A stretch of DNA of 32,000 nt from Synechocystis sp. PCC 6803 substr. PCC-P (GCF_000284455.1 NC_017039.1:3480001-3512000), one strand, 5' to 3'; positions 1-28,958 are shown, numbered from the stretch's first letter. The notes: generated by a model not told the origin, from the sequence alone. Numbers and translations: made by a program.

Positions 1-115
1 GGTCTGCTATGTCTATCGTCAATGATTATTTGTAATTGCAAACAAATTTGATTATCTTCAATGATGCTAATTTTAAACTTAAAGCTTTGTAGTTATTCGG
101 AAGTTAAATAGGGTT

Positions 116-1234
116 TTAATCTAAAGAAATCCAATGACCATTTAGCCTTTGCACAATTGCTGTTGCCTCTTCATAACTTTTAGCGATCGCCCAAGTATGG
201 TGGGTTTTGCCATTACTTTCCCGCAGATAAATTTGATTGGGTAACAGGGGATGGTCAGCGGTGGTACGGAGATAATCTTTGTTCAATTTGCTATGGAATT
301 GGGAATAGATGGACGTATCCCAGGGTATTCCCCGGTCCCAACCCGGCACCACCAAAGGATTAGCTCCCAATAAAATTTGGCACGGCACTAACATGGGGCC
401 TTTATAAATAGCATAGGCGATCGGCATACAGGTATTAATTGCTAAGGTGACTAATTCACCATATTTATGCATTAATGATTGTTGCCAATATTGGGTAATT
501 AAGGTGAAATCTAACCCCGCACTTCCCCTAGTATCTAAGAGTTTATTGAACTTTTCATATTCCGTTCGCACAGTGGTGATTTCCCGTTGCCAAGCATATT
601 CCAATGGACTTTGACCAAAAACTATCTTGCCTGCTTTGAGTAATTTCCATTTTTCACCAATTTTTAAAACGTCCAATTTTGCCGGTGCTTGTAGAGTAAA
701 TTGATAATTCTTCCCTGGGTTTTCATTAGTTGCTTTAAATAGTTTGGCGAAGCTAGCCAGGGAACTAAAATGGCTAAAGGATTCGGGACGAGGAAATAGA
801 TAAAATCCTTGGTTTTTGAGTTGCATTACCCAAAAGTTACCAACATTATTTTTTTCTAGAACATCTTCTTGGTCAATTAACAGAGAAACCCGCTGACAAT
901 AAACTTCTAATATTTGGGGAGTTTCGTGATAAATGTCAATAATTTTACTGATGGGTAAATCTAATAGAGGAGGGGGTTGTTCAACTATTAAATGGGGATA
1001 GGCATCGGCGGGAAAGGCAGTGGGTCGGCTAACTACAGTCTCAATTTGACTGATTTTTTGTTTAAGGACTTCTATTTCTTTGATTAAGTCAGCATTACTC
1101 TGGGTCTGAACTTCATTATTTTTTTGTGCTTGAAAAAATCGTAGGGCCGCAAACTCCTGTTGTAACTTAAGTTGATTTTTTTCCAACTGAATCAGCTTAG
1201 CTTGATTTAATTTATCCGGTTGATTGCCAGCCAT
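116..1234 (-). CDS. Hypothetical soluble coiled-coil protein and last gene of the tubulin-like/actin-like operon. It carries the shared ~75-aa adaptor domain (aa ~130-208) and a unique ~165-aa C-terminal domain.
   Basis: 372-aa ORF with ATG start, 32 nt downstream of the preceding same-strand gene. The N-terminus is heptad-like and Q/K/E/L-rich (QAKLIQLEKNQLKLQQEFAAL ... LIKEIEVLKQKISQIE) with no TM segment. The motif FYLFP...APAKL...EKWKLLKAGKI aligns to the C-termini of the two upstream genes. HIP1 at 183-190. Confidence 0.7.
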   Translation of the reverse strand: MAGNQPDKLNQAKLIQLEKNQLKLQQEFAALRFFQAQKNNEVQTQSNADLIKEIEVLKQKISQIETVVSRPTAFPADAYPHLIVEQPPPLLDLPISKIIDIYHETPQILEVYCQRVSLLIDQEDVLEKNNVGNFWVMQLKNQGFYLFPRPESFSHFSSLASFAKLFKATNENPGKNYQFTLQAPAKLDVLKIGEKWKLLKAGKIVFGQSPLEYAWQREITTVRTEYEKFNKLLDTRGSAGLDFTLITQYWQQSLMHKYGELVTLAINTCMPIAYAIYKGPMLVPCQILLGANPLVVPGWDRGIPWDTSIYSQFHSKLNKDYLRTTADHPLLPNQIYLRESNGKTHHTWAIAKSYEEATAIVQRLNGHWISLD

Positions 1235-1266
1235 GTTGTTTAATTTATCTCTTACTGTTAATGATT

Positions 1267-2472
1267 TTAATTAAACACGCCTTTTTCGACTATTTGCCAA
1301 CGGCGATCGCCGACTAGGAGAAGTTTAGCGGGCTTGACTAGGTTAGGGTTTTGTAAATTGCCATAGCTGTCAAAAAAGGAACTGTTAGTCAGTAGTCTTT
1401 GCCAGCGGCTGAGCATTAGATTCGGAATTAACCAAATTTCTTCCCCAATGGTAAAGGCCAAATAGGAAGCTTGGCTCCTTTCTCCTTCTTCAAATTCCTG
1501 GCGATCGCCAAGACTAAGATTGCCTGCCTTGCCATGGATAACACTTTCTGTGGGCTTAAGGTATTGGAACTGGGATTGATCATCAAAAAAATTCTTATTG
1601 CCCTGGTTAAAATTAGTGATGCAATATTCTAAGCTGAGGCCAAAAGATTGGGTTGATTTTTCGGTATTTTCTACTTCTACTAAGGCATCTATAGCTTGTT
1701 CTTCATTGCTTATTGCATGGCCTTTGGCATCGATACAATTATTTTCTAAAAAATAATTATAAACATCTGCCTCGATAATCGAATCTGGTGTATTCGGTTG
1801 ATTTTCACCTGGTAAAACAATATCAGTTTGGGTAACATTAATAACTTTGCGTTTTGCACCCCTAGTAAGCCTAGAAGCGGTAATTTTTTTTAAAGTTTTG
1901 CTTCCCATTTGTTGGAGAGATTTATTTTTACTAGGCTTAGTTGAAAAAGCATTCAACAAGTCAACTGCCAACTTGCCGACGACGATACTCAAACCTATGG
2001 TGCCAGCAATAAACAAATAAATCAGAATTATCAAGTCTTGGCTTTTCTGAACACCAATTTCAGTGGTGGTTTCTGCCCTACCCGAATTTACTGTGGGGGT
2101 TGGCGTCGGCGCAATGGTTGGACTGGTCGACTCGTCTGGATAGTAAGGGGTATTATTAACTTGACTTTCCTTTGTTCGTAAACCAATCCAGCCCCTTTCA
2201 TCTACAGAAAAAGTGACAATTTTATACCAGCAAAAACCGTCATAAAATTTGGCATAGATGTCAGACAAAGCAAATCTTCTGCCAGCGGGAATTTCGGCAA
2301 TAATTTCACCATTAATATTGGGAATATCGTAAACGTCCAAATTAAAATCAGAAAATGACATCTGATAATCCCTCATTGCTGGACAAGGATTATTTTGCTG
2401 AGCATAAACTGGACTAATGCTCCGAATTATTACAACAATAAAAACAATTGCAAAATTTCTCAGTCTATTCAT
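1267..2472 (-). CDS. Bitopic membrane protein: signal peptide, bacterial SH3 (SH3b)-like periplasmic domain, P/T-rich linker, TM helix, basic cytoplasmic segment and the shared ~75-aa C-terminal adaptor domain.
   Basis: ATG at 2472 gives MNRLRNFAIVFIVVIIRSISPVYA/QQ (signal-peptide-like) and lies 8 nt after the upstream stop. The longest ORF start (2520) would overlap the upstream gene by 40 nt. SH3b-like segment: LDVYDIPNINGEIIAEIPAGRRFALSD...FCWYKIVTFSVDERGWIGL. Linker: PTIAPTPTPTV. TM: LIILIYLFIAGTIGLSIVVGKLAV, followed by a K/R-rich stretch (positive-inside). C-terminus: IWLIPN...KPAKLLLVGDRRWQIVEKGVF. Confidence 0.72.
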   Translation of the reverse strand: MNRLRNFAIVFIVVIIRSISPVYAQQNNPCPAMRDYQMSFSDFNLDVYDIPNINGEIIAEIPAGRRFALSDIYAKFYDGFCWYKIVTFSVDERGWIGLRTKESQVNNTPYYPDESTSPTIAPTPTPTVNSGRAETTTEIGVQKSQDLIILIYLFIAGTIGLSIVVGKLAVDLLNAFSTKPSKNKSLQQMGSKTLKKITASRLTRGAKRKVINVTQTDIVLPGENQPNTPDSIIEADVYNYFLENNCIDAKGHAISNEEQAIDALVEVENTEKSTQSFGLSLEYCITNFNQGNKNFFDDQSQFQYLKPTESVIHGKAGNLSLGDRQEFEEGERSQASYLAFTIGEEIWLIPNLMLSRWQRLLTNSSFFDSYGNLQNPNLVKPAKLLLVGDRRWQIVEKGVFN

Positions 2473-2480
2473 AAATTCAT

Positions 2481-3287
2481 TTATTTGTCGCCAAAACTCC
2501 CTTTTGAAGTTAGCTTCCAATGATTTTCTTTAATTAACTCTAAATGAGCAGGAAACTTGAGTTCAAATCTATCTGATACGGCATTCATTTCAAATATTCT
2601 ACTATCATTATTTAGTTTAATTAATCTTGATATTTTCGGCATGGTAGCATTGGGAATTAAGTAGAACTGATTATTGAATTGAAAAATAAGGTAAATAGCA
2701 TTGGCTTTATCTGAAATTGACTTAAACTCTATAATTGGTTCCCCATCAATAGCTCGTCTATTGTCTTTAGATTCTTCTGTTAGCTCAACAGGAATAAAGT
2801 TAGGATGATTGAAATAATCGACATTTAGTTGTGCGTACTGCTCAAGAATAATTTTTACTTGATCAATTTGTTCTTTTTGTTGCTCTATTTCCCCTACTTG
2901 AAGTTCATTTACATTAAAGCTTTTTGGCCGATTGTCGTGGTATCGATTGACTGAATTTAAATAATTTAACTGACTGCTCAGGTCGGCTACCTTTGTGTGT
3001 AAAGTAATATTTTTTTCTTTATATTTTTGAATTTGATTACTTAATACATTTAGTTGTTGTTGCACTTGATTGATATCGGAAGTATTCAAAAGTATTTTTT
3101 TTCCTTGTGTTTCTACGGTTTCACTGATTTTTTTGACTTTTCTGAAGTCTGATGAAAATCCACGCATTTTTTTGTTATTTAAAATACTAATAGCAATACT
3201 AACCATTGAAAATATGAAGGCAAGTATTGAAGCGGTAATGGAGATTGATATCCACGACTGTTCTGATATAAGTTTAAAAAATTCCAT
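2481..3287 (-). CDS. N-terminally TM-anchored coiled-coil protein with the shared ~75-aa C-terminal adaptor domain.
   Basis: 268-aa ORF, 49 nt downstream of the 1072-aa gene. TM: WISISITASILAFIFSMVSIAISIL, followed by NNKKMRGFSSDFRKVKK (cytoplasmic side). About 120 aa are heptad-rich (QQQLNVLSNQIQKYKEKNITLHTKVADLSSQLNYL). C-terminus: FYLIPN...KFPAHLELIKENHWKLTSKGSF. Very AT-rich with no HIP1. Confidence 0.72.
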   Translation of the reverse strand: MEFFKLISEQSWISISITASILAFIFSMVSIAISILNNKKMRGFSSDFRKVKKISETVETQGKKILLNTSDINQVQQQLNVLSNQIQKYKEKNITLHTKVADLSSQLNYLNSVNRYHDNRPKSFNVNELQVGEIEQQKEQIDQVKIILEQYAQLNVDYFNHPNFIPVELTEESKDNRRAIDGEPIIEFKSISDKANAIYLIFQFNNQFYLIPNATMPKISRLIKLNNDSRIFEMNAVSDRFELKFPAHLELIKENHWKLTSKGSFGDK

Positions 3288-3336
3288 GAGTTTGATTTTT
3301 TACCTAATTTAAATTCTATGAGACTATCAATTATAT

Positions 3337-6300
3337 TTAAGATTTAGACCACTTATCTGCAATTAAATCAATAAAACATTTAAGTACGATTAAAAAAGTT
3401 GGCTCTGCTTCAAATTCAGATACTGGGCCATGTTTCCGAAGACAAGCTTTCTTAATACGAGATTTCAAAATTACTTGATCGTCATTGCTCAACTGATAAA
3501 GTCCAGATCCATCAAAATTTCTCAATATATCAACTTCATTTATTCCTAATTCTTTGACTGTCTGATTAAAATTTTTAATATAATTTTCTAATTGGGAAAA
3601 AGACGCAATTTCAAACTGATTTATTTCTTCCCACTCATCATCAGTTTGTAATAAATCTTCAGATCCATAATCCTTACCATTGATTGTGCAAGACTCCCCT
3701 AGAAAAGGATAAGTTTTCTGGTTAGTTGCAATGCCCTGAAGCTTTTCTCCATCTTCTGGAACAACTAACCCTCCACACACTTCTTCTTTGGGATATTCAG
3801 ATAGCGTAGAAACCTCTGGATTGTATGATAGCCCAGATGCTTTTGTTAAAAGTCCCTGAAAAAGAATATTTACTTCCGATGATTCTGAAAATTCACCTGT
3901 TGGAGTTAGCCAATGTAGAAATCGAGAACCATTGCCACCAAAGAGAAAAGTAGTTGCTATTCCATCCGTGAAATGCTTATTTTGTACGTGTAGTATTCTT
4001 TGGATTAGTCCAACATAGTGAAATAGACCTCCGACAGCAAAACTAATTAGCGTTCTGAATTCACGATTTCTCCGCTTGTCGCAGTTGATAGCATAACCTT
4101 CCGATAAAATTCTTTCTGCATTACTTCTCATATAAGTATCAAGGGCAGAATCAAAGTTATTACCACTTAATACTTTCGCAACATTACGAGCAGCTTCTGG
4201 CGGCAAACCAAAAATTTCATCAGTAAAATTAAGATTACTTTCTAAAATGCGGTGAAAGATATTTCTTCCAGCAAATGGCACCGAAACTTGATGTATTAAA
4301 TTGTTATCTTGCCAAATTGAAATATCTGATGTGCCGCCTCCAATATCAATACAAGTTGTGTTAATGAGATTCTTTTTGAGAATATCGGCAAAAAATTGTG
4401 CAAAAGCAACGCTTTCAGTTCTTAGTCCTCTGTCATCTACGATGTGATTTTGTCCACTGACTAAATTCAACTGGTCTAGTACACGCTTCCAAGTAATCTG
4501 GTAACGATTGAGATCCATCGTGGAAAAAGCAGATGGATAAGAAATGGACCATTTTACTTCTCGAACTTCTTGCCATGCCGCTTGGGCAGCAATCATGCGT
4601 GCCAGTTGTGATAAAAATGGACGCTGATGCTGTACTTTTTCCCATTTAATGTTTGTTTTAATAAACTCTTTATTGAGTTCATATTTATCGAGCCGAGGAA
4701 AATATATTCGACCATCTACCACAAGCTCTGGAATATCTCCATCTATTTCTTGCCATCCCCTGGTGGTTAGCATTGCTAGCATGGGAGGATTATTACCTTC
4801 CGGTAAAAGCAGATCAGGAATGAAAAATTCTCGATAAATTACTGTTTGAATATCTTCCAAACTGTGGGTGATTTTCAGCAAATTAGTTTGGAGTTGCAAC
4901 CTTTCTGGAGTACCGCTAGAGCCTTTCCGCACGTAAACATTGGTAAATGACGTGCCGAAATCTAATCCCACCGTCCAAGTGGTGGCATTTCCGCCCTGGG
5001 CTTTGGGTATCCGCAGAGGAATAAGACCAAGCGGCTGGGCATTTTTATCAATCGCCAGGAGGACATCGGGGTAGGCATCACATTTCCAGTACTGATAACT
5101 TTCCTGACCCGATCGTCGATTTTCCGCTTGGGCATTGGGAGTGGGCTGATCCACCCGAAAAGCTAACTCACCATACTCTTCCGTGGTTTCCACTAGCAAG
5201 AAATATTCTTTCCATAAACTGGGAGGCACATTGGGCCAAAGCGCCAAGGTGGGAAAATCCTGCTTAATTTCATTTTCCGCCTTGAGGGGATATTCCTGGG
5301 ACATTGTATAGGCCACAGGCCGCTCAAATCCTGATATTTGCACCGTCAGCGAAATCCGTACCCCCGGGCCTTCAGGAGTGGAAACCGGGGCTAACTCCAC
5401 CTGTTTTTCCAAATCTTCACTGCTGAAATATTCCCGCAGAAAGGGCTTAAAGGGTAACAGAATGGTCAGATTATCCAGATTTAGCTTTTGGTCTAACCAA
5501 GTGCCCGGTAACAAACCCTTTGTTTTGTGGAAATAAAGATTATCTTGGAAAATATCCGCCGGGGTAGCAAAAATGGCATCGGAACGCCGGTGAAGATTAG
5601 GATCAAAATTGAGCAGAGGGGACGCGTCAATAACATTAATTTCCTGGGGTTGTTTACCTAACAGTCCTGGTAGTTGTACTGGATCAAGAATATAAAGTTG
5701 CTTACTGGGATTGCGACTGGCTGAAGCAATTACCCTCACATTGGAAGGATTTTGTACCGCCTCCGCTGGATATAAAGCATTCAACGGAGGTGGAGCTAAA
5801 GGAATACCAAACGGTAAATTTTTTGTAGTAGGTTGAAAGACATTACTGGTGGTGACCCCCAAATCTTGGATATAGTCGTCAATCATCCCCGAAACCCGTC
5901 CCGCCAAATCCTCATTTTGGGGATTACGCATCAAATTACCCTTCAAATTTTCCAACCAAGGCAACAACACCTCCTTTTGATTGGGAGCCAAACCATTGCC
6001 AATGGGATTAGTGAAAAAGCCATTTTTTATCCACGCAATACGGCGACTTAAATGCTCAGGAAAATAACCCGTGGGGCAAACAATGGTGGCCGGACTAGTC
6101 ATACCGATCGCCACGCCGTCCAGTTCAAACAAATACAACTCCGCCCAGGGACCATCGGGGGGAACCATGGCCAACACATTATCTTTATCGTTGGGGCGCA
6201 ATTTCCAAAGACAGCGGGCAAATTCCTTATCTTGATAATCCTTGAGCCGCACCTGGGTGGCAGTGATCTTAAGATTTAAATTTTCCGCCAGGGCTAAAGC

Positions 6301-6555
6301 CGTTAATAAACCTCGATATTGCTCAATTAACCAATCCCGACTGGGGTATTGTCGGTTGCGAAAAGCCGAAATTAATTGCAACGGCCGAGACCAAGGACTA
6401 GGGATAGAATTTACTTCCCGGTAGGCTCCTGCTTCAAACTCCAAACTATTACCCAAGCGGTTAAACAATCCCACTCCCTCGGCGATCCATTCCCCTGGAG
6501 CAGCGCCACCAGCAAAATCTTGATTAGTTTTGGGAAGTAGGGGTTGGTTAGTCAT
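3337..6555 (-). CDS. Large (1072 aa) two-part protein: an unrecognised ~525-aa N-terminal region plus a C-terminal actin/Hsp70/sugar-kinase-fold (ASKHA) ATPase domain.
   Basis: Uninterrupted 3.2-kb ORF. Phosphate-1 motif TWTVGLDFGTSFTNVY is encoded at 4933-4980. Phosphate-2 motif TCIDIGGGTSDISIW is at 4312-4356. The adenosine-like motif FLFGGNGSRFLHWL is at ~3905-3960. Order and spacing are as in Hsp70/ParM/MreB-type folds. I recognise nothing in the N-terminal half. Confidence 0.85.
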   Translation of the reverse strand: MTNQPLLPKTNQDFAGGAAPGEWIAEGVGLFNRLGNSLEFEAGAYREVNSIPSPWSRPLQLISAFRNRQYPSRDWLIEQYRGLLTALALAENLNLKITATQVRLKDYQDKEFARCLWKLRPNDKDNVLAMVPPDGPWAELYLFELDGVAIGMTSPATIVCPTGYFPEHLSRRIAWIKNGFFTNPIGNGLAPNQKEVLLPWLENLKGNLMRNPQNEDLAGRVSGMIDDYIQDLGVTTSNVFQPTTKNLPFGIPLAPPPLNALYPAEAVQNPSNVRVIASASRNPSKQLYILDPVQLPGLLGKQPQEINVIDASPLLNFDPNLHRRSDAIFATPADIFQDNLYFHKTKGLLPGTWLDQKLNLDNLTILLPFKPFLREYFSSEDLEKQVELAPVSTPEGPGVRISLTVQISGFERPVAYTMSQEYPLKAENEIKQDFPTLALWPNVPPSLWKEYFLLVETTEEYGELAFRVDQPTPNAQAENRRSGQESYQYWKCDAYPDVLLAIDKNAQPLGLIPLRIPKAQGGNATTWTVGLDFGTSFTNVYVRKGSSGTPERLQLQTNLLKITHSLEDIQTVIYREFFIPDLLLPEGNNPPMLAMLTTRGWQEIDGDIPELVVDGRIYFPRLDKYELNKEFIKTNIKWEKVQHQRPFLSQLARMIAAQAAWQEVREVKWSISYPSAFSTMDLNRYQITWKRVLDQLNLVSGQNHIVDDRGLRTESVAFAQFFADILKKNLINTTCIDIGGGTSDISIWQDNNLIHQVSVPFAGRNIFHRILESNLNFTDEIFGLPPEAARNVAKVLSGNNFDSALDTYMRSNAERILSEGYAINCDKRRNREFRTLISFAVGGLFHYVGLIQRILHVQNKHFTDGIATTFLFGGNGSRFLHWLTPTGEFSESSEVNILFQGLLTKASGLSYNPEVSTLSEYPKEEVCGGLVVPEDGEKLQGIATNQKTYPFLGESCTINGKDYGSEDLLQTDDEWEEINQFEIASFSQLENYIKNFNQTVKELGINEVDILRNFDGSGLYQLSNDDQVILKSRIKKACLRKHGPVSEFEAEPTFLIVLKCFIDLIADKWSKS

Positions 6556-6657
6556 GGTTAGTCAGGCAATTAAAAATAAAGCTGGGGGAAGGGAAAAATA
6601 GGGTGCAATTAGCCTAGGTCAAAAAGCTGATTCACAGTTAAATGAACGTAAAGCGGA

Positions 6658-8145
6658 CTAAAGTAAATCAAACAGGGCATGGGCTAAGCCAAAAACGCCT
6701 TTATCATAACTTTTGCCCTCATCTGCTAAACGGTTCTTGATTGTGTCCAGGCGATCGCCACTTTGCGCCGCTTGACTTTTCTCCTTATCAATAATTAATT
6801 GGTGGAGATGTTCACGATAACCGGGGTTTTGTTTCAGATCGTCCAAATGTTTGAGCTGAAAAAGTTGCTCGCCATTGACATGGGCAGAGGAAACCTGTTG
6901 GGCCCATTGCAAAAACTTCTTGGCCCAGGCTGTGAGTAGATCATTTTTGGCCACTTCCTGGGCATTGTCCACCAGGGGTTTATCCTCTTCCCCTGCCCTA
7001 AGAGCAAAAAAGTGTTGGAACCAAGGAGCACCCTTCGCAAACTTTTTACCTCCCAACTTCCGGGCCGCTTCCAACTCCAAGGAAAAGTTATAGAACCAAG
7101 CGTAGGCAAAGCGCACTCCCTTACTGAGGGCTAATTTAGCGATTTCGTCATCCGGCAAGTCCGTCCAAATCAGACTATTGATATCCCCCCGACTGATGTA
7201 GTGGGCCACCGTTTCCCCCATGGGTTGATCGAAACCATGGTTAGCGGCCAGGGCGGCGTACAGTTCGACAAAATGGGCCCCATTTTCCTGATTTTTGCCC
7301 CCAGTGTGGGAATCATACCTAGTTTGGGCATTGTCCCCAATCAAGTACACACTATCAAAACAGCCTTGGGACTGCTCCGTTAAGTATTGCAATGCCGCTT
7401 GGGTATTGAGGGCAAAAAAGCGAGTTTCGGCAAACACCGTTTGATCGCCGTCGTCAGGACGTTCAAAGGCAAAGTACGGTAACAACAAAGATGCGTGAAT
7501 ACGAACTCGAAGATTGTCCTGTTTTAACTGATTACTAATTAGTTTAGCCAGGGTAGGAACCCCGGAAGCTCCTGTTCCCCCAAAGATACTGCCAAAGAAA
7601 TGCACCACCACATCATTGCCCCGACCTACCCCTAAATCCGTGGTTAGATTATTAAATAGCTGTTGCCATCCCCCAGCCTGGGTTTGCTGGAGACTATCCA
7701 GTTCTAAACGACTCATCACCGCTGAACCGATGGGAGGCCGGCCCCGAAACCCCACTCCTAGATCGGCAGTTTGTTCCGCTGGACTGTAAAGGGCATCAAA
7801 TAATTTTGCTAAGGGAGGAGCACTGGCCCGCAAAGCTTGTTTGTTAAAAACCCCTGCTAAGTTGTTGTTATGAACTTGGTCCCCCAGGGGATTCCAGGTG
7901 CCGTAGTGGAAAAATTGTCCACTCATTAAGGGGCTTTTCCCTTGGCCAAAAGCTTTTTGGGCATCGTCGGTGGTACGGAAGTTGACCCCAGTTCTTTGAG
8001 AGTTGCCGTTAGAGGTATCTGCATCGACCAATAAAATTCTTAGTTCGGAGTTGTCGCCGTACAGCCCCAGGGAATGGAGAAAAATGGCCGCTTCCACGCA
8101 TTTAGCTCCACTGCCCCCCACACCGATGGCATAAATTTTTTGCAT
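6658..8145 (-). CDS. Divergent tubulin/FtsZ-superfamily GTPase (Tubulin_2 / FtsZ-like-type).
   Basis: 495-aa ORF. Motifs appear in canonical order: T1 IGVGGSGAK (aa 7-15, nt 8101-8127); T3-like GVGFRGRPPIGSA (aa ~130-142); T4 tubulin signature FGGTGASG (aa 188-195, nt ~7561-7584); then LLLPYF and YLIGDNAQ (aa ~267-274, compare tubulin xDNEA / FtsZ xPN). The ATG is 10 nt after the upstream stop, with a purine tract GGAGGTTAGAGG just upstream. HIP1 at 6751. Confidence 0.82.
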   Translation of the reverse strand: MQKIYAIGVGGSGAKCVEAAIFLHSLGLYGDNSELRILLVDADTSNGNSQRTGVNFRTTDDAQKAFGQGKSPLMSGQFFHYGTWNPLGDQVHNNNLAGVFNKQALRASAPPLAKLFDALYSPAEQTADLGVGFRGRPPIGSAVMSRLELDSLQQTQAGGWQQLFNNLTTDLGVGRGNDVVVHFFGSIFGGTGASGVPTLAKLISNQLKQDNLRVRIHASLLLPYFAFERPDDGDQTVFAETRFFALNTQAALQYLTEQSQGCFDSVYLIGDNAQTRYDSHTGGKNQENGAHFVELYAALAANHGFDQPMGETVAHYISRGDINSLIWTDLPDDEIAKLALSKGVRFAYAWFYNFSLELEAARKLGGKKFAKGAPWFQHFFALRAGEEDKPLVDNAQEVAKNDLLTAWAKKFLQWAQQVSSAHVNGEQLFQLKHLDDLKQNPGYREHLHQLIIDKEKSQAAQSGDRLDTIKNRLADEGKSYDKGVFGLAHALFDLL

Positions 8146-8155
8146 GGCTTAACCT

Positions 8156-8659
8156 CTAACCTCCATAAATTTTGCGTAATAACATTGACCCCGGTGGCAC
8201 GTAGCGCATGGATTTGGGAGTGGCTAGGGCCGTGGGCAGCCAGAAAATTAACAAGACATCGACAATGATGAAGCCCAGTAGCCAGAAAAATGGTTCTAGG
8301 TTACGGCTGTCATCAAACCAGCCGTTAAGGAAACTCAGACCCACTAGAGCCAACATGGTCACTACACCGAGGACAATGGCAAAAATCCACCAAAGACCGC
8401 CGGTGCTGAGCACGTCCTGGGCCTTGGTGAAGCCACTGCTGAGGGCTTTAGCAATCCAGAATAGGAGTAACAGCGCTCCCAATACATAAACCACGTAAAG
8501 GGTGGGGAATAAAATCTCTGCGGCCCATTTATCCAAGTTACCCCGGGATAAACTCAAAGGCAGTCCACTTCCCCCTAGCAACCATGGCTGTAACCCAAAA
8601 ATGACAATGGTGGCGATCGCTACTGTAACCACCAGGGCCACTATCTCCGTAATTTTCAT
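8156..8659 (-). CDS. Small integral membrane protein with 4 predicted TM helices.
   Basis: 167-aa ORF with four hydrophobic ~20-aa segments at aa ~5-23, 50-70, 88-110 and 122-145. It lies 57 nt downstream of the vWA gene and 10 nt upstream of the tubulin-like gene. HIP1 at 8613. Confidence 0.75.
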   Translation of the reverse strand: MKITEIVALVVTVAIATIVIFGLQPWLLGGSGLPLSLSRGNLDKWAAEILFPTLYVVYVLGALLLLFWIAKALSSGFTKAQDVLSTGGLWWIFAIVLGVVTMLALVGLSFLNGWFDDSRNLEPFFWLLGFIIVDVLLIFWLPTALATPKSMRYVPPGSMLLRKIYGG

Positions 8660-8716: not shown

Positions 8717-10126
8717 TTAATAGTGGCTATAGCCGAGACAAAACTTAACAGCATCTTGATTATTGGCCACCGCCCCCCGTAGTCCCGATACAAAAAGCAG
8801 TAAATTTTGGGTTCTGGCCCCGTCCGGGTTACTAATGTCCATATCCCAATCCCGCCACACTGCCTGATCCAATTGGCGATCGCCAAGGGTGACGTAAACT
8901 AATTTTCCTTGCCCCTGGGGTACCTGATTGCCATCAAAAACAGCGGTTAATAAAAGGCGGGCATTCTCTCCCCCGGGATTTTGAGCAATTTCTGCTTTTT
9001 TCACCGTCAAAAAGGGTTCAGACACATTGAAAAGATCTGGGGTTAGCTCTCCACCAGTGAGGGAAACGGTACTTTTAGAAGGAATATTTAACTCCAACGG
9101 TGGCAGAGGGCTAGCAGAATTTTCACCACAATTGGTTTGTTCGACCATAAGCCAATCCTTTTCCTGGTCTTGGTTTGGCCTCTGACGGTCTATGGAACCA
9201 ATGTCAATTACGCATTCTTGAATAGTGCCTTTTAAAGAACTGTTGTCTAGAGTCACCGTATCTGCTTGGCCAAGCTCAAAGGCGGAGGCCCGAAAGGCTT
9301 TATTGACATCTAAGGGAAGCTGACGGAATTCCCTTACCAATTCATCCACCGTTTCCTGGGGCCCCGTCATCAGGATAAAAAATGGTCTGCCCTTTTGATC
9401 CACGTCCTGGCCAGTGGTGTTGTAAACAAAAGTGGGATAACCAGCGTTGGCAGAATAAACATTGCCCCGGAACTGACTCCGAACTCCCAAGAGCACGGCT
9501 TTATAGTTGGGATTATTGTTTAACTCTTTGCTGATCAGGCCAGAAATTTGTCCCACAGCGGCATCGTCCGGTTCTAGGTCGGTGAGTAAAATTTTCAGAC
9601 TGCGGGTAGCACTGGTATTGGTGGAAGTGTTGCTATCCTCTTCACTCCCTTCATTTCTTTCCCCTTGATTATTAGATGTGCCGGCGGCCGGGCTTTCCAA
9701 TTCATAAAGTTGCCCCAAAGTACTGGAAACACAAGGATAATCCGCTATTGGCTGATCCCGACGACAATAAAAGGGCGCTTTACTGGCGGCCAGAAATTGG
9801 TTAGCAGAAATCGGTTGGGCCTGACTAATATTTTCATTGCTCCCCACCCGCCAATAGGAAGTGGGCAAATTTTTGTTTTGCAAAAGGGTGTGCAAAGAGG
9901 CGATCGCCTGGCCATAGCGACCACCAGGTTGACTGACAAAACCCACCATGGACTCACTGGCATCTACCCCCACCATTACATCCAGGTTTTCAAAAGGCCC
10001 AGGGGAAGATTGTTCGTCTCTGCGCTCTACCATCCCTTGGTCTGTTTCCACACAGGGTAAACCTCCCCTCTGGCCACAACCGGCTAATACTAGAGCCAAC
10101 AAAGAGAACAAAATCCAGCTTTTCAC
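8717..10126 (-). CDS. von Willebrand factor A (vWA) domain lipoprotein and first gene of the operon.
   Basis: The N-terminus MKSWILFSLLALVLAGCGQ is a signal peptide with lipobox L-A-G-C. MIDAS DxSxS motif VGVDASESM is at nt 9948-9977. The downstream KILLTDLEPDD matches the vWA 'LLTDG' strand. 469 aa. HIP1 at 8876 and 9900. Confidence 0.85.
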   Translation of the reverse strand: MKSWILFSLLALVLAGCGQRGGLPCVETDQGMVERRDEQSSPGPFENLDVMVGVDASESMVGFVSQPGGRYGQAIASLHTLLQNKNLPTSYWRVGSNENISQAQPISANQFLAASKAPFYCRRDQPIADYPCVSSTLGQLYELESPAAGTSNNQGERNEGSEEDSNTSTNTSATRSLKILLTDLEPDDAAVGQISGLISKELNNNPNYKAVLLGVRSQFRGNVYSANAGYPTFVYNTTGQDVDQKGRPFFILMTGPQETVDELVREFRQLPLDVNKAFRASAFELGQADTVTLDNSSLKGTIQECVIDIGSIDRQRPNQDQEKDWLMVEQTNCGENSASPLPPLELNIPSKSTVSLTGGELTPDLFNVSEPFLTVKKAEIAQNPGGENARLLLTAVFDGNQVPQGQGKLVYVTLGDRQLDQAVWRDWDMDISNPDGARTQNLLLFVSGLRGAVANNQDAVKFCLGYSHY

Positions 10127-10516
10127 GCAAAAACCCAGAAAGACAATAATGGAAATGATTCATCAGAGCGGGAGTTCGCCCATTAGCCTAATGCACTGCT
10201 CTGAAAAAATCAAGCGCCTGCGGGTGAGCCCAAGTCATTTCGATTCTAAGCGAGAGTTCCTTGAGTTATTCCCTAAAGCTTTAATAGTCACGGCGCCAAT
10301 ATTAAAGTGACCCCATCCCTTATCCATTGCCATTACACAGGTTCAAACAACTTAAACTGTTTTGTATTGTTACTAACAGATTAAATTTTTACTGACCGGG
10401 GACGCTTAGAATCTCCCCAAGCTGATAGCCCTGCTAACTAATTAAGCACAGACAGAAAGCACCCGGTTTGAATTGCCTCCAGGATAACCAGATAAAATGG
10501 GAACTTAATCACCCTT
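10127..10516. promoter_or_regulatory. 390-bp divergent intergenic region between the vWA/tubulin-like operon (-) and the helicase gene (+). It presumably holds both promoters.
   Basis: This is the only long non-coding gap next to the operon start. It is AT-rich (e.g. ttttgtattgttactaacagattaaatttttac). TAAAAT at 10493-10498 is a possible -10 for the helicase gene. No TSS data are available, so the call is positional only. Confidence 0.35.
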
Positions 10517-13500
10517 TTGCCTAAATCTGTGAAAACCCTAGCCTACGCTAACCCTGCTGATCTATTCGCCTTTCCCTTGGATGACTTCCAACAAGAGGCG
10601 ATCGCCGCCCTGGACCAAGACCAGTCAGTGGTAGTGTGTGCCCCCACAGGTTCCGGTAAAACGGTAGTCGGAGAATATGCCATCTATCGAGCCATTGCCA
10701 GGGGAAAAAGGGTTTTTTATACTACGCCTTTGAAGGCCTTGTCCAATCAAAAAATTCGGGATTTCCAGGAAAAATTAGAGAAGTTAGGCCTAGAAAATGC
10801 GGCCCAACTAGTGGGCTTAATTACCGGTGATACGGTGATCAATGCCGATGCCCCGGTGGTGGTAATGACCACGGAAATTTTTAGGAATATGCTCTACGAA
10901 ACCCCCATTGGGGAAGTAGGCACTTCTTTGGAGGACGTGGAAACAGTGGTGTTTGACGAAGTCCATTACATCAGCGACCGGGGTCGGGGCACTGTGTGGG
11001 AAGAGTCAATCATTTATTGTCCCAGCACCATTCAACTGGTGGGTTTGTCCGCCACCATTGGCAACCCGGAACAGTTGACCGAATGGATTAATCAAGTCCG
11101 CACTGGGGTTTCCCTGAAAGTATTACGCCAGGGAGAGCAACGTAATGATTCCCCCCCCTGTGTGCTGGTCAATTCCGATTTCCGTCCTGTGCCCCTCACC
11201 TTTCACTACAGCACCCGCAAAGGTTTATTTCCCCTGTTGAATGAGAAAAAAACGGGAGTTAATACTCGCCTATTGCCCAAGGCTGGGAATAAAAATACCC
11301 GTTCTGGTAAAAATCGCCGCATGCGCCGGGAGGATTGTCCCTATCCCCTGTTGGTGATGCAACAGCTACAGGAACGGAATTTGTTGCCGGTAATCTATGT
11401 AATTTTTAGTCGGCGGGGCTGTGAACAGGCGGCCCAATCCCTGGAAGATTTATCTTTGGTGGAACCGGCGGAGCAGGAAAGTATCCAACTGCAACTACTG
11501 GATTTTTTCTTTGGCAAAAATCCCCTACTGCGGCAGAAGTTGGAACGGGATTTGGCCAATGGTTTGCCGGATTTAGTCCAAGCGGTCGTTGCCTATTTGG
11601 ATCATCCCCAGGACAGTGAAGCGGCCCAAAGACTTTTGACTGCGTTGGCGATCGATCCAGAAGGTATGTTCAAACTCTGGGGTTGGATTGCCCAATCTTC
11701 TCCCATGACTAGGTTCGAGCAGATTGAACCCCTTTTACGGGGCATTGCGGTGCACCACGCCGGCATTTTGCCAGATATGAAAACCCTGGTGGAAAAGTTA
11801 TTTGAGCAGGGCTTGATCAAAGTGGTATTTGCCACAGCCACCCTCTCGGCGGGGATTAATATGCCTGCTCGCACCACGGTGATTTCTGCCCTATCCAAAC
11901 GTACCAATGAAGGTCATGCCATGCTCAGTCCTTCGGAATTTTTACAAATTGCGGGGCGGGCTGGGCGGCGGGGTATGGATACGGAGGGCCATGTAATTAC
12001 GGTGCAAACTCCCTTTGAAGGGGCCAATGAGGCCTCTTACTTAGCTCTAGCGGAGGCGGAACCGTTAAAAAGTTGGTTTACCCCTTCCTATGGCATGGTG
12101 CTGAATCTGTTGCAAAAACATGATTTGGAAGAAGTAAAAAGTTTGCTGGAACGGAGCTTTGCCGAATACTTGGCCCAGTTTGCCCTGGAACCCACTAAGG
12201 TGGCGATCGCCGAAACGGTGAAAAAATTATCCCAATTGGATATTAAGTTGGCAGGCATTGGGGAAAAGGATTTACGCAGTTACGAAAAATTCCGGGGGCG
12301 ACTGCGGGAAGAACAAAGGTTGCTGAAAATTCTGGAAGAACAGGCGGAAAAAGAACGAAAGCAACAGTTAAAGGATCAACTCAAAACCCTGGCACCGGGT
12401 CAGCTTTTATATCTCAAAGGTCGCCACGTCAAAATCCATCAACCTCGTTTAGCGGTCATTGTTGCCCCCCTGGCCCCCGCCCATAATTTGCCCCAATGGT
12501 GCTGCCTGGGCAGTGATAACCGTTGGTATCATGTCACTGTGGGGGATATTTATGCGGTGCCCATTGGTAATCTGTCCCCAGCCCAATGGCAGCATTTAAC
12601 CCCGCCCCCAGCGGAACTTTTGGCTCCCGGTAAATCGGTGAAGGGAGATGAGGAAACATTGGCGATCGCCGCAGGCCTAGACCCCCAAACCTATCCCTTA
12701 GAACCCAGCCCAGAACTGGTAGAACAACAGGCCAGGGTAGACCATGTGGAAAAACTGTTGGCAGTACATCCCCTGGCTAGCCAAAAACATCCCGGCAAAC
12801 TTTTGGAGCAGTTCCACCAACGGCAAGAACTACGTAAAACCCTAAGCAAACGACAACAGGAGTATGATCGCCTACAATCCCGTCAATCCTACTATTGGCA
12901 GGAGTTCCTAGACTTAATTGACATTTTGCAGGAAATGGAAGCCCTGGAGGAATATACCCCCACACTGTTGGGGGAAGTGGCCGCCACCCTGAGGGGGGAA
13001 AATGAATTGTGGTTGGGTTTGGCCCTGATTTCCGGCAAATTCAACGATTTGGAACCAGAACAGTTGGCCGCCGCCGCCAGTGCCCTCATTACGGAAACTC
13101 CCCGTTCCGATGCTTGGACTGATTTCAAGCCTTCCCCTGTAGTGTTGGCCGCTCTCCGTCCCAGTAATGATTTGTTTGGCCTATTATTTTGCCTTAAACA
13201 CCCTCAACCTCCCCTTGCCCTCTGGCAGGCTATGACGGTGGCGGATCATTTGCAACGGCTTAATCTCTGGGATCTACGACGTAAATTGATCAAAGCTCAA
13301 AATCAACGGGCGATCGCCATTCCCCTTTGGTTGGAAGTGGATTTTATGGGCTTGGTGGAACAGTGGGCATTGGGCATGGAGTGGGAAAACCTCTGCCGCC
13401 AGACCAGTTTGGATGAGGGGGATTTAGTCCGACTTTTCCGGCGCACGGTGGATCTGCTTTGGCAAATTCCCCAGGTGCCCCACCTTTCCCCCCGACTAAA

Positions 13501-13549
13501 ACGGAATGCTCGCATTGCGGTGCAACAAATGAAGCGTTTTCCCCTCTAA
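10517..13549 (+). CDS. Ski2-like (HelY/Mtr4-type) DEAD/DEAH-box superfamily-2 RNA helicase with a DSHCT-like C-terminal domain.
   Basis: Motif I CAPTGSGKT, motif II VVFDEVHYISD, motif III SAT and motif VI QIAGRAGRRG are present. The C-terminus LVEQWALGMEWENLCRQTSLDEGDLVRLFRRTVDLLWQI is typical of DSHCT. There is no in-frame ATG near the 5' end, so the start is TTG 10517 or GTG 10529. Confidence 0.9.
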   Translation: MPKSVKTLAYANPADLFAFPLDDFQQEAIAALDQDQSVVVCAPTGSGKTVVGEYAIYRAIARGKRVFYTTPLKALSNQKIRDFQEKLEKLGLENAAQLVGLITGDTVINADAPVVVMTTEIFRNMLYETPIGEVGTSLEDVETVVFDEVHYISDRGRGTVWEESIIYCPSTIQLVGLSATIGNPEQLTEWINQVRTGVSLKVLRQGEQRNDSPPCVLVNSDFRPVPLTFHYSTRKGLFPLLNEKKTGVNTRLLPKAGNKNTRSGKNRRMRREDCPYPLLVMQQLQERNLLPVIYVIFSRRGCEQAAQSLEDLSLVEPAEQESIQLQLLDFFFGKNPLLRQKLERDLANGLPDLVQAVVAYLDHPQDSEAAQRLLTALAIDPEGMFKLWGWIAQSSPMTRFEQIEPLLRGIAVHHAGILPDMKTLVEKLFEQGLIKVVFATATLSAGINMPARTTVISALSKRTNEGHAMLSPSEFLQIAGRAGRRGMDTEGHVITVQTPFEGANEASYLALAEAEPLKSWFTPSYGMVLNLLQKHDLEEVKSLLERSFAEYLAQFALEPTKVAIAETVKKLSQLDIKLAGIGEKDLRSYEKFRGRLREEQRLLKILEEQAEKERKQQLKDQLKTLAPGQLLYLKGRHVKIHQPRLAVIVAPLAPAHNLPQWCCLGSDNRWYHVTVGDIYAVPIGNLSPAQWQHLTPPPAELLAPGKSVKGDEETLAIAAGLDPQTYPLEPSPELVEQQARVDHVEKLLAVHPLASQKHPGKLLEQFHQRQELRKTLSKRQQEYDRLQSRQSYYWQEFLDLIDILQEMEALEEYTPTLLGEVAATLRGENELWLGLALISGKFNDLEPEQLAAAASALITETPRSDAWTDFKPSPVVLAALRPSNDLFGLLFCLKHPQPPLALWQAMTVADHLQRLNLWDLRRKLIKAQNQRAIAIPLWLEVDFMGLVEQWALGMEWENLCRQTSLDEGDLVRLFRRTVDLLWQIPQVPHLSPRLKRNARIAVQQMKRFPL

Positions 13550-14032: not shown

Positions 14033-15340
14033 TTAAACTTTGGGTTTTAGCTTGATATTTAGTTTAGGGACAAAGCTTTTGATTAAAACTGATTCTATTT
14101 CCTGCAGATAATGTTTAGGTAGCGAAGTTATGAAAGCAATTTTGCCATCTTCTATTAAGTCAAAATCAGATTGTCTGTGATGAGAATACCAACGCTTTTG
14201 AAGGTTGACTGACATTCCAATATATTGAATTGCATCATCTTTGTTGAGGACAAAATAAATTCCAGGCTGTTCTGGTAGTTCGTCCCTTTCTTCAATTGGT
14301 ACTGCTGACAATTTTGCGGGATTAATTTGAGTTATTTCCAAAAAAATTCCATCGTAAATGAATTTTGAAATATATTCAATAAAGGAAAGGAATAAAAAAT
14401 CAGAGCTATTCCAGGAATTTAATTCTTCTGGTAATTCTGAATCTAAAGGATCAAATTCCTGACCATCGAGGACACACATAAAAGAAGCGATTATGTTTTC
14501 CCATTCATAAACATATTTTTTAGATTTATAGCGGTTCTGCCATTTATCTAGCCAATTTTGTGCATCATTCCAAGCTTCTGGATAATACCATTCTTGCCAT
14601 AATTGTTTTAGTTTATTCGCCGTCGGTGGTTTTGGTGGATCGCAATATTCGCGGTCGTAAATATTTTTCCATGCTTTCCTAAATATTGAGTATATTTCAC
14701 TAGGTAACTCTGGGATTTCAAATTCTTTTTGCTGATAGCTTTGGATTTCTGGATCAATATCAATATATTTAGTGATTTCGTTGGATTCGTTGTTTTGACC
14801 CATCTTCATCTCTACTTGTGTCAATCCAGATTCTAATAAAGGAATAAAGTTGCTAGTTTCTAAAAATTCTCCATCAATAACTTCATCATTTATTTCTTCT
14901 TCTTTGGGTGTGTTAAGCAAAAGTGACAACTGTAATCCCAGCGCCCCAGAAATCCATTCTCTACCCGGAAACAACAAGTCAACTTGATATTTGTCTTCCA
15001 AAAGTAAACTAAAATTACCCTTAATTGAGTTGAGGTAATATTTTTTGACTTCAGATATTATTTCTTCGTAAAATTGTGACAAGATTTTAACTTCATTTGC
15101 CGCTTTTCCTTTGGTGTGTAAATAAGGCTTAACAACTACACTACCATGCTCACTTAAGGGATCTAGTTCCTCTGTTATCCACTCCTTAACATCTTCAATA
15201 TCAAGGGAGCCTAATCCTTTATTTTCTCGACGTAAAAGTTCTGTCTCTATTGCTTTTCGGCAAATATCAGACCAATTTGCGTCTACCTTTGCCATTCGAC
15301 TTTTTAAATCATCGGTCACATAAACATTGAGTGCAGGCAT
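14033..15340 (-). CDS. GIY-YIG nuclease-domain protein with an RHH/antitoxin-like N-terminus and a ~300-aa unknown middle region, encoded on an AT-rich island.
   Basis: C-terminus: PGIYFVLNKDDAIQYIGMSVNLQKRWYSHH...LQEIESVLIKSFVPKLN. This gives GIY-x10-YIG plus the conserved R, H, E and N in canonical order (nt ~14033-14290). N-terminus from ATG 15340: MPALNVYVTDDLKSRMAKVDANWSDICRKAIETELL, which is ribbon-helix-helix-like. The longest ORF start at 15421 adds 27 non-descript aa. Hand-counted GC is 18-33% per 60 nt, against ~55% in adjacent ilvD. No HIP1. Confidence 0.8.
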   Translation of the reverse strand: MPALNVYVTDDLKSRMAKVDANWSDICRKAIETELLRRENKGLGSLDIEDVKEWITEELDPLSEHGSVVVKPYLHTKGKAANEVKILSQFYEEIISEVKKYYLNSIKGNFSLLLEDKYQVDLLFPGREWISGALGLQLSLLLNTPKEEEINDEVIDGEFLETSNFIPLLESGLTQVEMKMGQNNESNEITKYIDIDPEIQSYQQKEFEIPELPSEIYSIFRKAWKNIYDREYCDPPKPPTANKLKQLWQEWYYPEAWNDAQNWLDKWQNRYKSKKYVYEWENIIASFMCVLDGQEFDPLDSELPEELNSWNSSDFLFLSFIEYISKFIYDGIFLEITQINPAKLSAVPIEERDELPEQPGIYFVLNKDDAIQYIGMSVNLQKRWYSHHRQSDFDLIEDGKIAFITSLPKHYLQEIESVLIKSFVPKLNIKLKPKV

Positions 15341-15546
15341 GGTTAAACCATAAGTAGAAGTATAAAGAAGATTATACGCATATTCTCTGGGTGCGACAAC
15401 CAAAATTATGCGCACATGCAATTATTCTTTACAAAACTTAGGTTCTATCTCCCTAAGTTGACTTTTTGTGGCCAGGCTTGAGCAAAGGGGAATAAACCAT
15501 CGACAATGGACAGAAGCATAGATTCGCTACGAGACAGGAGAGAACA

Positions 15547-28224: not shown

Positions 28225-28932
28225 GCAGAGTAACCGAGAACCTAACCAGTCTCCGGAAACTTGAGGGTGATGTGGCCAATCAGGTAAATTACACCAAGTC
28301 TTAAAACGATATCGCTCTTCTATCATTGTGGGTAGGATAAGATGGAGAAGATAGTCTGAAATGCAGAGGTGGTATATGGTTGCCCCACGTGAAGCAAAAG
28401 AAACAGTACAATTCATTGACAAATACTGCGAAGGATACAGAGACTTATTTTATTTCCAAAAGTGAGAAGCTTTGAATACTTTAAATACTTGCATCTAGGA
28501 TTAATTGCGAATATAAAGAGAAAAACCTTCCCAGAAATAGCTAAGGTAGTAGGACTAGAAAATGGACAAGGATTTGACTATTTCTTCGGTAACAGCCCTT
28601 GGTCGTTAGAGGAGGTAAGGGAAAGAAGAATTAATAAAATTCTGAGTTTTGCGGAAGGAGAAGCAATAACAATGCTCATAGACGAAACAGGGGATAGGAA
28701 AAAAGGAAGAAAGACAGATTATGTTGCGCGTCAGTATATTGGCAATCTAGGAAAAATAGAAAATGGAATAGTAGAGGTGATGTGTTATGGAATTATAAAG
28801 GGAATGACAGTACCATTAATCAGCAAAGTATATAAACCAGAGACAAGACTAAAAGAGGGGGATAAATACAAAAGTAAACCAGAGATAGTAGGGGAAATTA
28901 TCAAAGAAATAAAAGAGCTTGGTTTCAATATA

Positions 28933-28956
28933 TAGTAGTTTAAAATAAAGCTGAGA
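28933..28956. repeat. ISY100 terminal inverted repeat (stop-codon side of the transposase gene).
   Basis: TAGTAGTTTAAAATAAAGCTGAGA matches 18/24 positions against the reverse complement of 29856-29879. Confidence 0.7.
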
Positions 28957-28958
28957 CG

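Follow-up and report, generated by a model that had tools for sequence, protein, structure and literature searches.

The tubulin-like FtsZl1 family was defined by Makarova and Koonin in 2010, and the passages of their paper that deal with the family describe it as a separate, vertically inherited clade in cyanobacteria, with vWA proteins as partners and with most other genes of the operons lacking recognizable domains (PMC2875224). Here we analysed an operon of this kind, sll0443-sll0449 of Synechocystis sp. PCC 6803, and found that its last three genes, sll0447, sll0448 and sll0449, encode proteins that share one domain, hereafter called X. The operon lies within a 32,000-nt stretch of DNA of substrain PCC-P (NC_017039.1:3480001-3512000), which was analysed as a whole and is referred to as the window. 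The operon comprises seven minus-strand open reading frames (ORFs) between positions 116 and 10126, and all seven translations are identical to the deposited proteins. Sll0445 belongs to the FtsZl1 family, and the operon also encodes a lipoprotein with a motif like the metal-ion-dependent adhesion site (MIDAS) and membrane proteins, as do the vWA/FtsZl1 operons treated in the passages cited above. It differs in that its accessory genes have X in common and follow the gene of a giant actin-fold ATPase, Sll0446; such an ATPase is not mentioned as an FtsZl1 partner in the passages of that paper on actin, HSP70, operons and cyanobacteria (PMC2875224).

The seven genes are given as a single transcription unit in PMC2633013, which assigns a putative SYCRP1 site to it (Table 1). 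In a lexA mutant, sll0443-sll0445 and sll0448 are up 4-6 fold together (PMC4759255), and Sll0445 and Sll0446 are deregulated in a comFB mutant. Sll0445, Sll0446 and Sll0447 co-fractionate with one another and also with Slr2015/Slr2018 and the photosystems, and their insertion mutants are impaired in phototaxis (PMC9880817).

By function, and by function only, the X proteins resemble the adaptors of FtsZ and MreB in being membrane anchors, transmembrane proteins with periplasmic domains, or cross-linkers. In those systems, several unrelated scaffolds connect a single cytoskeletal polymer with the membrane or the periplasm, or with one another: FtsA, ZipA, SepF, EzrA and ZapD are adaptors of the FtsZ C-terminal peptide, and RodZ serves MreB. 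The binding domains of the FtsZ and MreB adaptors are unrelated, whereas the X adaptors have a single domain, are encoded in a single array of 1-7 genes, and are predicted to dock. By analogy, a conserved C-terminal helix of Sll0445 could serve as a hub similar to the FtsZ peptide. A likeness of logic only exists with the J-domain and Hsp70, where a small domain on many scaffolds addresses one ATPase of the actin/HSP70 superfamily. The J-domain is a four-helix structure with an HPD motif, whereas X is β-rich with two N-terminal helices, has no HPD and gives no Pfam DnaJ match. Finally, the effector-associated domains (EADs) of conflict systems dependent on nucleoside triphosphates, reportedly described by Kaur, Burroughs, Iyer and Aravind in 2020, are said to be present on the nucleoside triphosphatase (NTPase) as well and to act homotypically. 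Like X, they are small adaptor domains found in several genes of an NTPase operon together with variable partner domains; X differs from them in being missing from Sll0445 and Sll0446, and the searches yielded neither an effector domain nor a PADLOC match.

Homology of the three regions was evaluated by several approaches. BLASTP aligned the C-termini of Sll0447 and Sll0448 with an E-value of 8e-8 (28% identity over 74 amino acids [aa]), and Sll0447 with the middle of Sll0449 with an E-value of 2e-4; the direct comparison of Sll0448 with Sll0449 was not significant (E 1.4). Smith-Waterman z-scores from 2000 shuffles of the domain regions were 14.8 (sll0447/sll0448), 8.3 (sll0447/sll0449) and 2.2 (sll0448/sll0449). 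Comparisons between small orthologue groups using hhalign gave probabilities of 94.6%, 85% and 57.5%, with E-values of 7e-8, 6e-6 and 1e-4. The strongest evidence comes from a leave-out hidden Markov model (HMM) built from 193 domain copies of other cyanobacteria, from which the window and its two closest relatives were excluded. Of the 122 window ORFs, this model matched exactly three, sll0449 (E 2.7e-25), sll0447 (E 2.5e-17) and sll0448 (E 9.1e-14), with nearly full-length coverage of the model. The alignment on sll0448 spans residues 294-416 in the numbering of a 417-aa form, which results from an alternative TTG start at position 2520. The shared domain of sll0447, sll0448 and sll0449 is real and homologous. 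An earlier sequence-only reading of this DNA had proposed one domain of about 75 aa common to the three genes, and recommended pairwise and profile alignment. The common domain is upheld by these comparisons, with leave-out E-values of 1e-13 to 1e-25 and with the sll0448/sll0449 pair alone falling short of significance; its length has to be corrected to about 120-125 aa. The ORFs are placed as that reading had them, all on the minus strand, and its core positions (2484-2740, 1270-1500 and 611-847) agree within a few codons with those of the β cores in Table 1.

X comprises a conserved N-terminal helical part (lv..YN..p..l...ai.Vs.T..S) ahead of a β-rich core with the motif order GnYWI ... yLvP ... 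LF ... KPAkV ... WqL.EkG.L.F. An AlphaFold2 model of Sll0449 residues 91-210, calculated from a 43-sequence alignment of matches from the representative search described below, is a single compact domain with a mean predicted local distance difference test (pLDDT) of 91.2 and a predicted template modelling score (pTM) of 0.85. It opens with two N-terminal helices and a strand; a three-stranded meander and two short helices come next, and a meander of four strands forms the C-terminal part. A shallower run on a 4-sequence alignment reached a pLDDT of 59.6 and gave Foldseek matches without meaning. A Foldseek search with the confident model revealed no similar structure in the PDB (best E 0.8, TM-score at most 0.25) and no neighbour in BFVD (best E 0.19), and the X profile had no match among PDB sequences at E ≤ 10. 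The modelled domain is thus without a solved structural relative in the PDB or BFVD, and we make no claim of a new fold. The near-invariant positions are Y, V, G, L, F, P, A, W, L and G, and include no catalytic-type motif. Because these positions are hydrophobic or structural and form no catalytic-type pattern, the sequence fits a non-enzymatic binding module.

The operon proteins of the window match no Pfam-A or NCBIfam family at cut-off and no PADLOC model, and no Pfam-A, NCBIfam or PADLOC model covers X in consensus-like members or in the family consensus. The sole at-cut-off listing is PF22415 on a four-copy protein (locus L063), where 27.0 bits equal the cut-off; the match covers residues 483-505 and no domain stretch passes alone. 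X was previously unmodelled in domain libraries, and our literature search found no paper describing the shared domain. Two names in use derive from other regions or from weak matches. The DivIC domain (PF04977) assigned to Sll0447 by Xu et al. (2021) scores 15.3 bits against a cut-off of 28.9 (E 0.018) and lies at residues 69-111, inside the coiled coil and outside X. DUF2860 (PF11059), the NCBI name of the S. salina Sll0448 orthologue, yields two matches of 13.1 and 13.8 bits against 22.9 (E 0.054 and 0.033). Both are sub-threshold matches and invalid family assignments, and the names should be dropped. A derivation of X as a diverged piece of Sll0446 or Sll0445 was also considered and rejected: hhalign gave probabilities of 0.9% and 0.2%, and X is absent from both families.

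A full-length search with Sll0447 in 5.8 billion proteins returned only the protein itself and one 70% orthologue, and a profile of the three window domains gave no matches against this index, being too weak for a collection of that size. Because the sll0447 scaffold is lineage-specific, homologues were reached via the neighbouring sll0445, whose product has more than 1200 homologues. We retrieved 80 cyanobacterial loci with 10-kb flanks by alignment of Sll0445 homologues, and iterated the three-domain profile to convergence over all their ORFs. This census revealed 202 X copies in 170 ORFs from 69 of 81 sources, with 183 copies on the strand of the tubulin-like gene. The conserved order is an sll0443-like lipoprotein gene (divergently transcribed in some loci), an sll0444-like membrane protein gene, the tubulin-like gene (preceded by the membrane protein gene in almost every locus), a gene for an sll0446-like protein of about 1090 aa, and then 1-6 X genes; the window order sll0445-sll0446-sll0447-sll0448-sll0449 fits this layout. 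In picocyanobacteria the layout is minimal, with a single X gene downstream and a second, convergent one, and Snowella-type loci carry an sll0449-like gene upstream of the operon. Overall, a locus carries 1-7 X genes and a protein at most 4 copies of X. A same-strand X gene lies downstream of 64 of the 67 full-length sll0446 homologues, with a median gap of 49 bp and 11 overlapping pairs. Two of the exceptions (L048 and L061) end within about 1.1 kb of the gene; in the third (L080), no X was detected in the roughly 6 kb downstream. In the first X protein after the sll0446 homologue, X is located at the extreme C-terminus in 59 of 60 cases.

Three further searches were anchored on X itself. Searched with a weak profile of four sequences, 1.84 billion representative proteins yielded 134 matches at E ≤ 1e-3, and an independent HMM derived from the loci confirmed 109 of 133. 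All three representatives that could be placed on long contigs reside in arrays downstream of an sll0446 homologue, one of these arrays comprising seven X genes with nine X domains. One match, P0262, has Fib_succ_major repeats and was counted as a false positive. When the X consensus was compared by tblastn with 72,556 plasmids, it matched a single record, NC_014503.1 of Gloeothece verrucosa PCC 7822, a 47.5-kb mobilizable plasmid whose five X copies all lie inside a complete operon copy crossing the record origin. This copy encodes the lipoprotein, the transmembrane protein, the tubulin-like protein, an ATPase of 1118 aa, five X genes, a short ATPase paralogue and an X-WD40 protein. Genes for TIR-domain and large WD40 proteins adjoin it on the opposite strand. 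The third search used a 46-bit degenerate DNA pattern, GxYW[IVL]-x7-YL[IVLF]P-x34-KPAx[IVLFM], and identified 10 metagenome stretches, all of them true X domains; an sll0446 homologue stands beside the array in all 4 loci with enough flank. The same tblastn query found none in phage genomes. Since the three X-anchored searches agree, the linkage of X to the NTPase genes is not an artefact of anchoring on sll0445, and X appears dedicated to the FtsZl1/actin-like operon in cyanobacteria.

Some genomes may hold more than one locus. In each of the pairs L005/L019 and L039/L062, assigned to one metagenome-assembled genome (MAG) isolate per pair, both loci have an sll0446 homologue and X genes. In the pair L007/L012, also of one MAG isolate, L012 has only the tubulin-like gene and L007 stops short of the X genes. 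These pairs suggest that one genome can hold two paralogous systems, comparable to the copies on chromosome and plasmid, with the reservation that the bins may be chimeric.

The X proteins differ widely in membrane topology. A hydrophobic segment is missing from 95 of the 170; one precedes X in 43, and 25 contain two. Membrane-anchored X proteins are encoded in 61 of 69 loci and soluble ones in 53 of 69. Multi-copy proteins, with 2-4 copies of X, account for 27 of the 170 and are soluble in all but 3 cases; the typical form has two X copies with a coiled coil between them, an architecture expected, judging by sequence, of a bivalent cross-linker. In single-transmembrane proteins, the C-terminal flank of the membrane segment is the more positive one in 29 and the opposite holds in 9. 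The many soluble forms and the positive charge on this flank together place X in the cytoplasm. When X was masked, the remaining parts of the 170 proteins fell into 80 similarity clusters, among which WD40 propellers are recurrent partners.

The three window proteins illustrate this diversity. For Sll0447, Pfam gives only weak coiled-coil matches. The SH3_3 profile (PF08239) scores 14.8 bits on Sll0448 and 16.1 bits on the L001 orthologue, weak values against a cut-off of 27 (E 0.033 and 0.013), and positions 4-48 of the 54 in the profile are aligned; the S. salina orthologue goes under the UniRef name SH3 domain-containing protein. The parts of Sll0449 outside X are conserved in 7 loci, and its C-terminal domain (aa 210-372, positions 116-607) is kept in seven proteins from Merismopediaceae, Snowella and Petrachloros and has no Pfam match. 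Kinship of this domain with Nostocales proteins of the form X(99-184)+tail was rejected at an hhalign probability of 0.1%. The proposals that the same module sits on three unrelated scaffolds, that it is cytoplasmic, and that it is linked to the tubulin-like and actin-fold genes all agree with these data: the first with BLASTP, the leave-out HMM and the scaffold clustering, the second with the 95 of 170 proteins without a hydrophobic segment, the mostly soluble multi-copy forms and the flank charge (29 versus 9), and the third with both the sll0445-anchored and the X-anchored searches. A picture of three partners proved too narrow, since across the family the adaptors form an expandable array of 1-7 genes per locus.

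Several observations bear on the partner of X. Short sll0446 paralogues of about 730-830 aa sit inside the X array of some loci. In the two genome loci and two metagenome loci where the junction was measured, and on the plasmid, an X gene comes straight after the paralogue: the overlap is 4 bp in L045, L060 and L091 and 23 bp on the plasmid, and in L088 the two genes abut. A comparison of the window with S. salina LEGE 00031 (L004) indicates mosaic evolution. Sll0445 is 94.5% identical between the two and sll0448 78%, whereas Sll0446 is 84-98% identical over residues 1-600 and 50-66% over residues 600-1072. DNA similarity is lost over window positions 3991-2432 (L004 15363-17153) between flanks of 80-85% identity, and this block coincides with a drop in GC content to 0.31-0.39. 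On this alignment, the final ~215 codons of sll0446 were replaced together with all of sll0447 as a single block. In S. salina, whose first adaptor has 357 aa, an insertion of about 1.3 kb (L004 11488-12792) separates the sll0445 and sll0446 homologues, the window spacer being 100 bp. Besides window/L004, the same mosaic is found in the pairs L051/L053, L053/L056, L040/L060 and L075/L076, from Waterburya/Myxosarcina, Nostocales and Chamaesiphon lineages. Identity in the mosaic pairs is at least 0.89 for the tubulin-like protein and at least 0.82 for the N-terminal part of the ATPase, and falls to 0.67-0.80 over ATPase residues 501-850, to 0.51-0.70 beyond residue 850 and to 0.25-0.47 in the first X domain. 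Because of the tight gene coupling and the joint replacement of the cassette, Sll0446 is favoured as the target and is, from these sequence patterns, most likely the X partner. The C-terminal helix of Sll0445 is, by analogy with the FtsZ peptide, a plausible alternative docking site.

We infer that X is a docking module for the NTPase core, with a target leaning to Sll0446, and assign this reading a probability of roughly 0.55. In this model, sll0447, sll0448 and sll0449 would encode paralogous adaptors with one X copy each, through which differing scaffolds would plug into a cytoplasmic core made of the Sll0445 GTPase and the Sll0446 ATPase. The Sll0447-type scaffold would be a membrane anchor with a coiled coil, the Sll0448 type an envelope-spanning protein with a periplasmic SH3b-like domain, and the Sll0449 type a soluble coiled coil with extra domains; other loci would add bivalent X-coiled-coil-X cross-linkers and WD40 propellers. 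The resulting complex may span the envelope and influence motility dependent on type IV pili.

A number of points weigh against this docking model. The joint replacement may reflect mere physical adjacency in a recombination tract, and a mirror-tree analysis gave weak partial correlations (ATPase core 0.27, its C-terminal part 0.09, tubulin-like protein 0.13). The absence of X from Sll0445 and Sll0446 excludes homotypic recruitment, so that recruitment would have to be heterotypic. Affinity purification with Sll0445-GFP (green fluorescent protein) lists none of Sll0446-0449 (Xu et al., 2021); the tag is C-terminal and would mask the conserved C-terminal helix. Copies of X may also exist outside the operon, the linkage having been established over operon-anchored loci and X-anchored subsets. 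One weak match of the X profile, the 1116-aa RIO/ABC1-type kinase-like protein P0272 (L084), is encoded on a short phage-like contig that also codes for RusA and an N6/N4 methylase; the core HMM gave no confirmation that it is an X protein.

The alternative that survives best is self-association, in which X would bind X and build an adaptor lattice or hub instead of docking to an NTPase. Such a module would suit the presence of at least two X proteins in nearly every locus (picocyanobacteria having two, one of them convergent), the 27 multi-copy proteins of 2-4 copies, typically two flanking a coiled coil, and the lack of X on the NTPases. It leaves unexplained, however, why sll0446-type and X genes are so tightly coupled, often with overlap, and why the first X gene was replaced along with the 3' half of sll0446; the X-coiled-coil-X form fits the cross-linking of a polymer equally well. 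We therefore regard self-association as unlikely, if worth serious consideration.

A target outside the operon would be a type IV pilus component, the inner face of the membrane or the thylakoid, or a small ligand or second messenger, to which the other parts of the adaptors would couple the NTPase machine. The co-fractionation of Sll0445-Sll0447 with Slr2015/Slr2018 and the photosystems and the co-regulation of the operon with motility genes via SYCRP1 and LexA point in this direction. Yet X is the only element conserved among the adaptors, and X genes were found only beside core genes; the plasmid carries core and adaptors as one portable unit, and the parts outside X, with their 80 clusters, are too variable to provide the common link to the core. 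An outside target is doubtful on these grounds.

The operon might instead be a diversifying conflict or defence system in which X recruits variable sensors and effectors to an NTPase switch. Features that recall such systems are the hypervariable low-GC cassette at the operon 3' end, the expanding, mosaic arrays of up to 7 X genes, the recurrent WD40 fusions, the complete copy on a mobilizable plasmid beside TIR-domain and WD40 genes, and the two loci in some metagenome bins (two locus pairs share an isolate label, and the bins may be chimeric). They are outweighed by the absence of PADLOC matches in all 7 operon proteins, by the fact that, among the proteins examined, none joins X to a recognizable effector (nuclease, protease, pore or TIR), by the placement of X, which unlike EADs is not on the NTPases, by the near-universal core, which PMC2875224 describes as vertically inherited in cyanobacteria, and by the known phenotype, a motility defect; a defence role is quite improbable. 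The notion that the three proteins resemble one another by chance or by composition (low-GC, Asn/Lys/Ile-rich) without a common domain, for which the insignificant sll0448/sll0449 pair (E 1.4, z 2.2) and the regional GC of 31-39% could be cited, is refuted by leave-out E-values of 1e-13 to 1e-25 confined to these three window ORFs, by hundreds of homologues with identical motif order and by the confident single-domain AlphaFold model from the family alignment.

The core proteins to which X would dock have recognizable relatives. Sll0445 matches Tubulin_2 (PF13809) at 20.8 bits against a cut-off of 27, and this family is precomputed on many of its homologues (40% identity). Its motifs GGSGAKC and GGTGASG are invariant in the family alignment, and its C-terminal helix, GVxGLAHALFxLL, is conserved. 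One homologue, P0103 (820 aa), is fused to a protein kinase domain. Sll0446 has weak FtsA and MreB matches and the phosphate-1, phosphate-2 and adenosine motifs of the actin/HSP70 superfamily (DFGTS..., DIGGGTSD and GGNGSR), which are conserved in its family alignment. Sll0443 has a lipobox-type N-terminus (LptM_cons match); D55 and S59 are invariant in its family within VDGSGSM and a TDLE motif is present, and no vWA Pfam or PDB profile match was found among 20 homologues. Going beyond docking, the operon might encode a near-pan-cyanobacterial, envelope-spanning cytoskeletal machine, made of the vWA-like lipoprotein, the membrane protein, the FtsZl1 GTPase and the actin/HSP70-fold ATPase of about 1090 aa, whose output would be set by an expandable and quickly exchanged array of X adaptors. 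Co-diversification of the C-terminal half of the ATPase with the adaptors would then rewire its connections to peptidoglycan, membrane, WD40 platforms or the pilus apparatus. We put forward this broader picture as tentative.

Table 1. Features of the sll0443-sll0449 operon and of related loci. Positions refer to the window unless another record or locus is named.
Feature	Position	Strand	Description
sll0447	2481-3287	-	268 aa; N-terminal transmembrane (TM) segment, coiled-coil-like region, C-terminal X domain
sll0447 TM segment	3189-3245	-	aa 15-33; Kyte-Doolittle 19-aa window 2.32; followed by NNKKMRG
sll0447 X domain	2484-2867	-	extended, aa ~141-268; β core aa 186-266, nt 2490-2732
sll0448	1267-2472	-	401 aa from ATG (deposited form); signal peptide, SH3b-like domain, TM segment, basic linker, C-terminal X
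sll0448 SH3b-like domain	2185-2337	-	putative, periplasmic; weak SH3_3 match and UniRef name of orthologue
sll0448 TM segment	1978-2034	-	hydrophobicity 2.72; followed by Lys/Arg-rich stretch
sll0448 X domain	1270-1641	-	extended, aa 278-401; β core nt 1270-1503
sll0449	116-1234	-	372 aa, no TM segment; coiled-coil-like N-terminus, internal X, C-terminal domain of ~165 aa
sll0449 X domain	614-964	-	aa 91-207; β core nt 617-868
sll0446	3337-6555	-	1072 aa; N-terminal part of ~500 aa without assigned function, actin/HSP70-fold ATPase
sll0445	6658-8145	-	495 aa; tubulin-like GTPase, FtsZl1/Tubulin_2 family
sll0444	8156-8659	-	167 aa; hydrophobic, probably multi-pass membrane protein of the conserved core
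sll0443	8717-10126	-	469 aa; core lipoprotein with a MIDAS-like VDxSxSM motif, resembling vWA by motif only
Putative SYCRP1 (cAMP receptor protein) site	10498-10513	-	upstream of the operon; exact match, 0 expected by chance
Operon copy on NC_014503.1 (L081/L082)	record 37627-47534 and 8-8020		
Short sll0446 paralogue, L045	17406-19598		
Short sll0446 paralogue, L060	18317-20515		
Short sll0446 paralogue, L088	7541-9835		
Short sll0446 paralogue, L091	5136-7388		
Short sll0446 paralogue, plasmid	747-3239		

The 3' part of sll0446 and the last three genes have a GC content of 0.31-0.39, down from about 0.48. No Rfam matches were found in the window. Divergent from the operon, a Ski2-like DEAD/DSHCT helicase of 1010 aa is encoded at 10517-13549 (plus strand), with the CRP-like site of Table 1 at its start. 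An ORF of 462 aa at 14033-15421 (minus strand) has a C-terminal GIY-YIG nuclease domain and forms a patch of GC 0.34 in surroundings of about 0.50. The region from 28 to 31 kb is a low-GC stretch with strong swings in GC and AT skew; at 28462-29807 an intact IS630-family transposase (282 aa, minus strand) comes right after a 157-aa DDE_5 transposase fragment (plus strand), and this segment looks like an insertion-sequence pile-up. A 361-aa ORF at 30876-31961 (minus strand) matches positions 265-487 of the 518 of the Hsp90 (HtpG) profile and is without the N-terminal part.

Few hypothetical proteins of Synechocystis have a phenotype; Sll0445-Sll0447, with their impaired phototaxis, belong to these few. 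Since 2010, FtsZl1 has been regarded as a predicted system of membrane remodelling, and its accessory genes as lacking recognizable domains (PMC2875224). That the ATPase 3' half and the first adaptor are repeatedly exchanged as a unit suggests that the two partners are co-adapted, and the exchange cassette is an unusual diversification hotspot inside an otherwise conserved, housekeeping-like operon. Which NTPase is bound by X, whether X-coiled-coil-X proteins cross-link filaments and whether the SH3b-TM-X protein links the wall with the cytoplasmic polymer have become testable questions. The X HMM is ready for use in annotation, and the predicted fold is one without a solved counterpart. Recognition of X thus makes one adaptor class of the anonymous downstream genes, from Synechocystis and the Nostocales to the marine picocyanobacteria.

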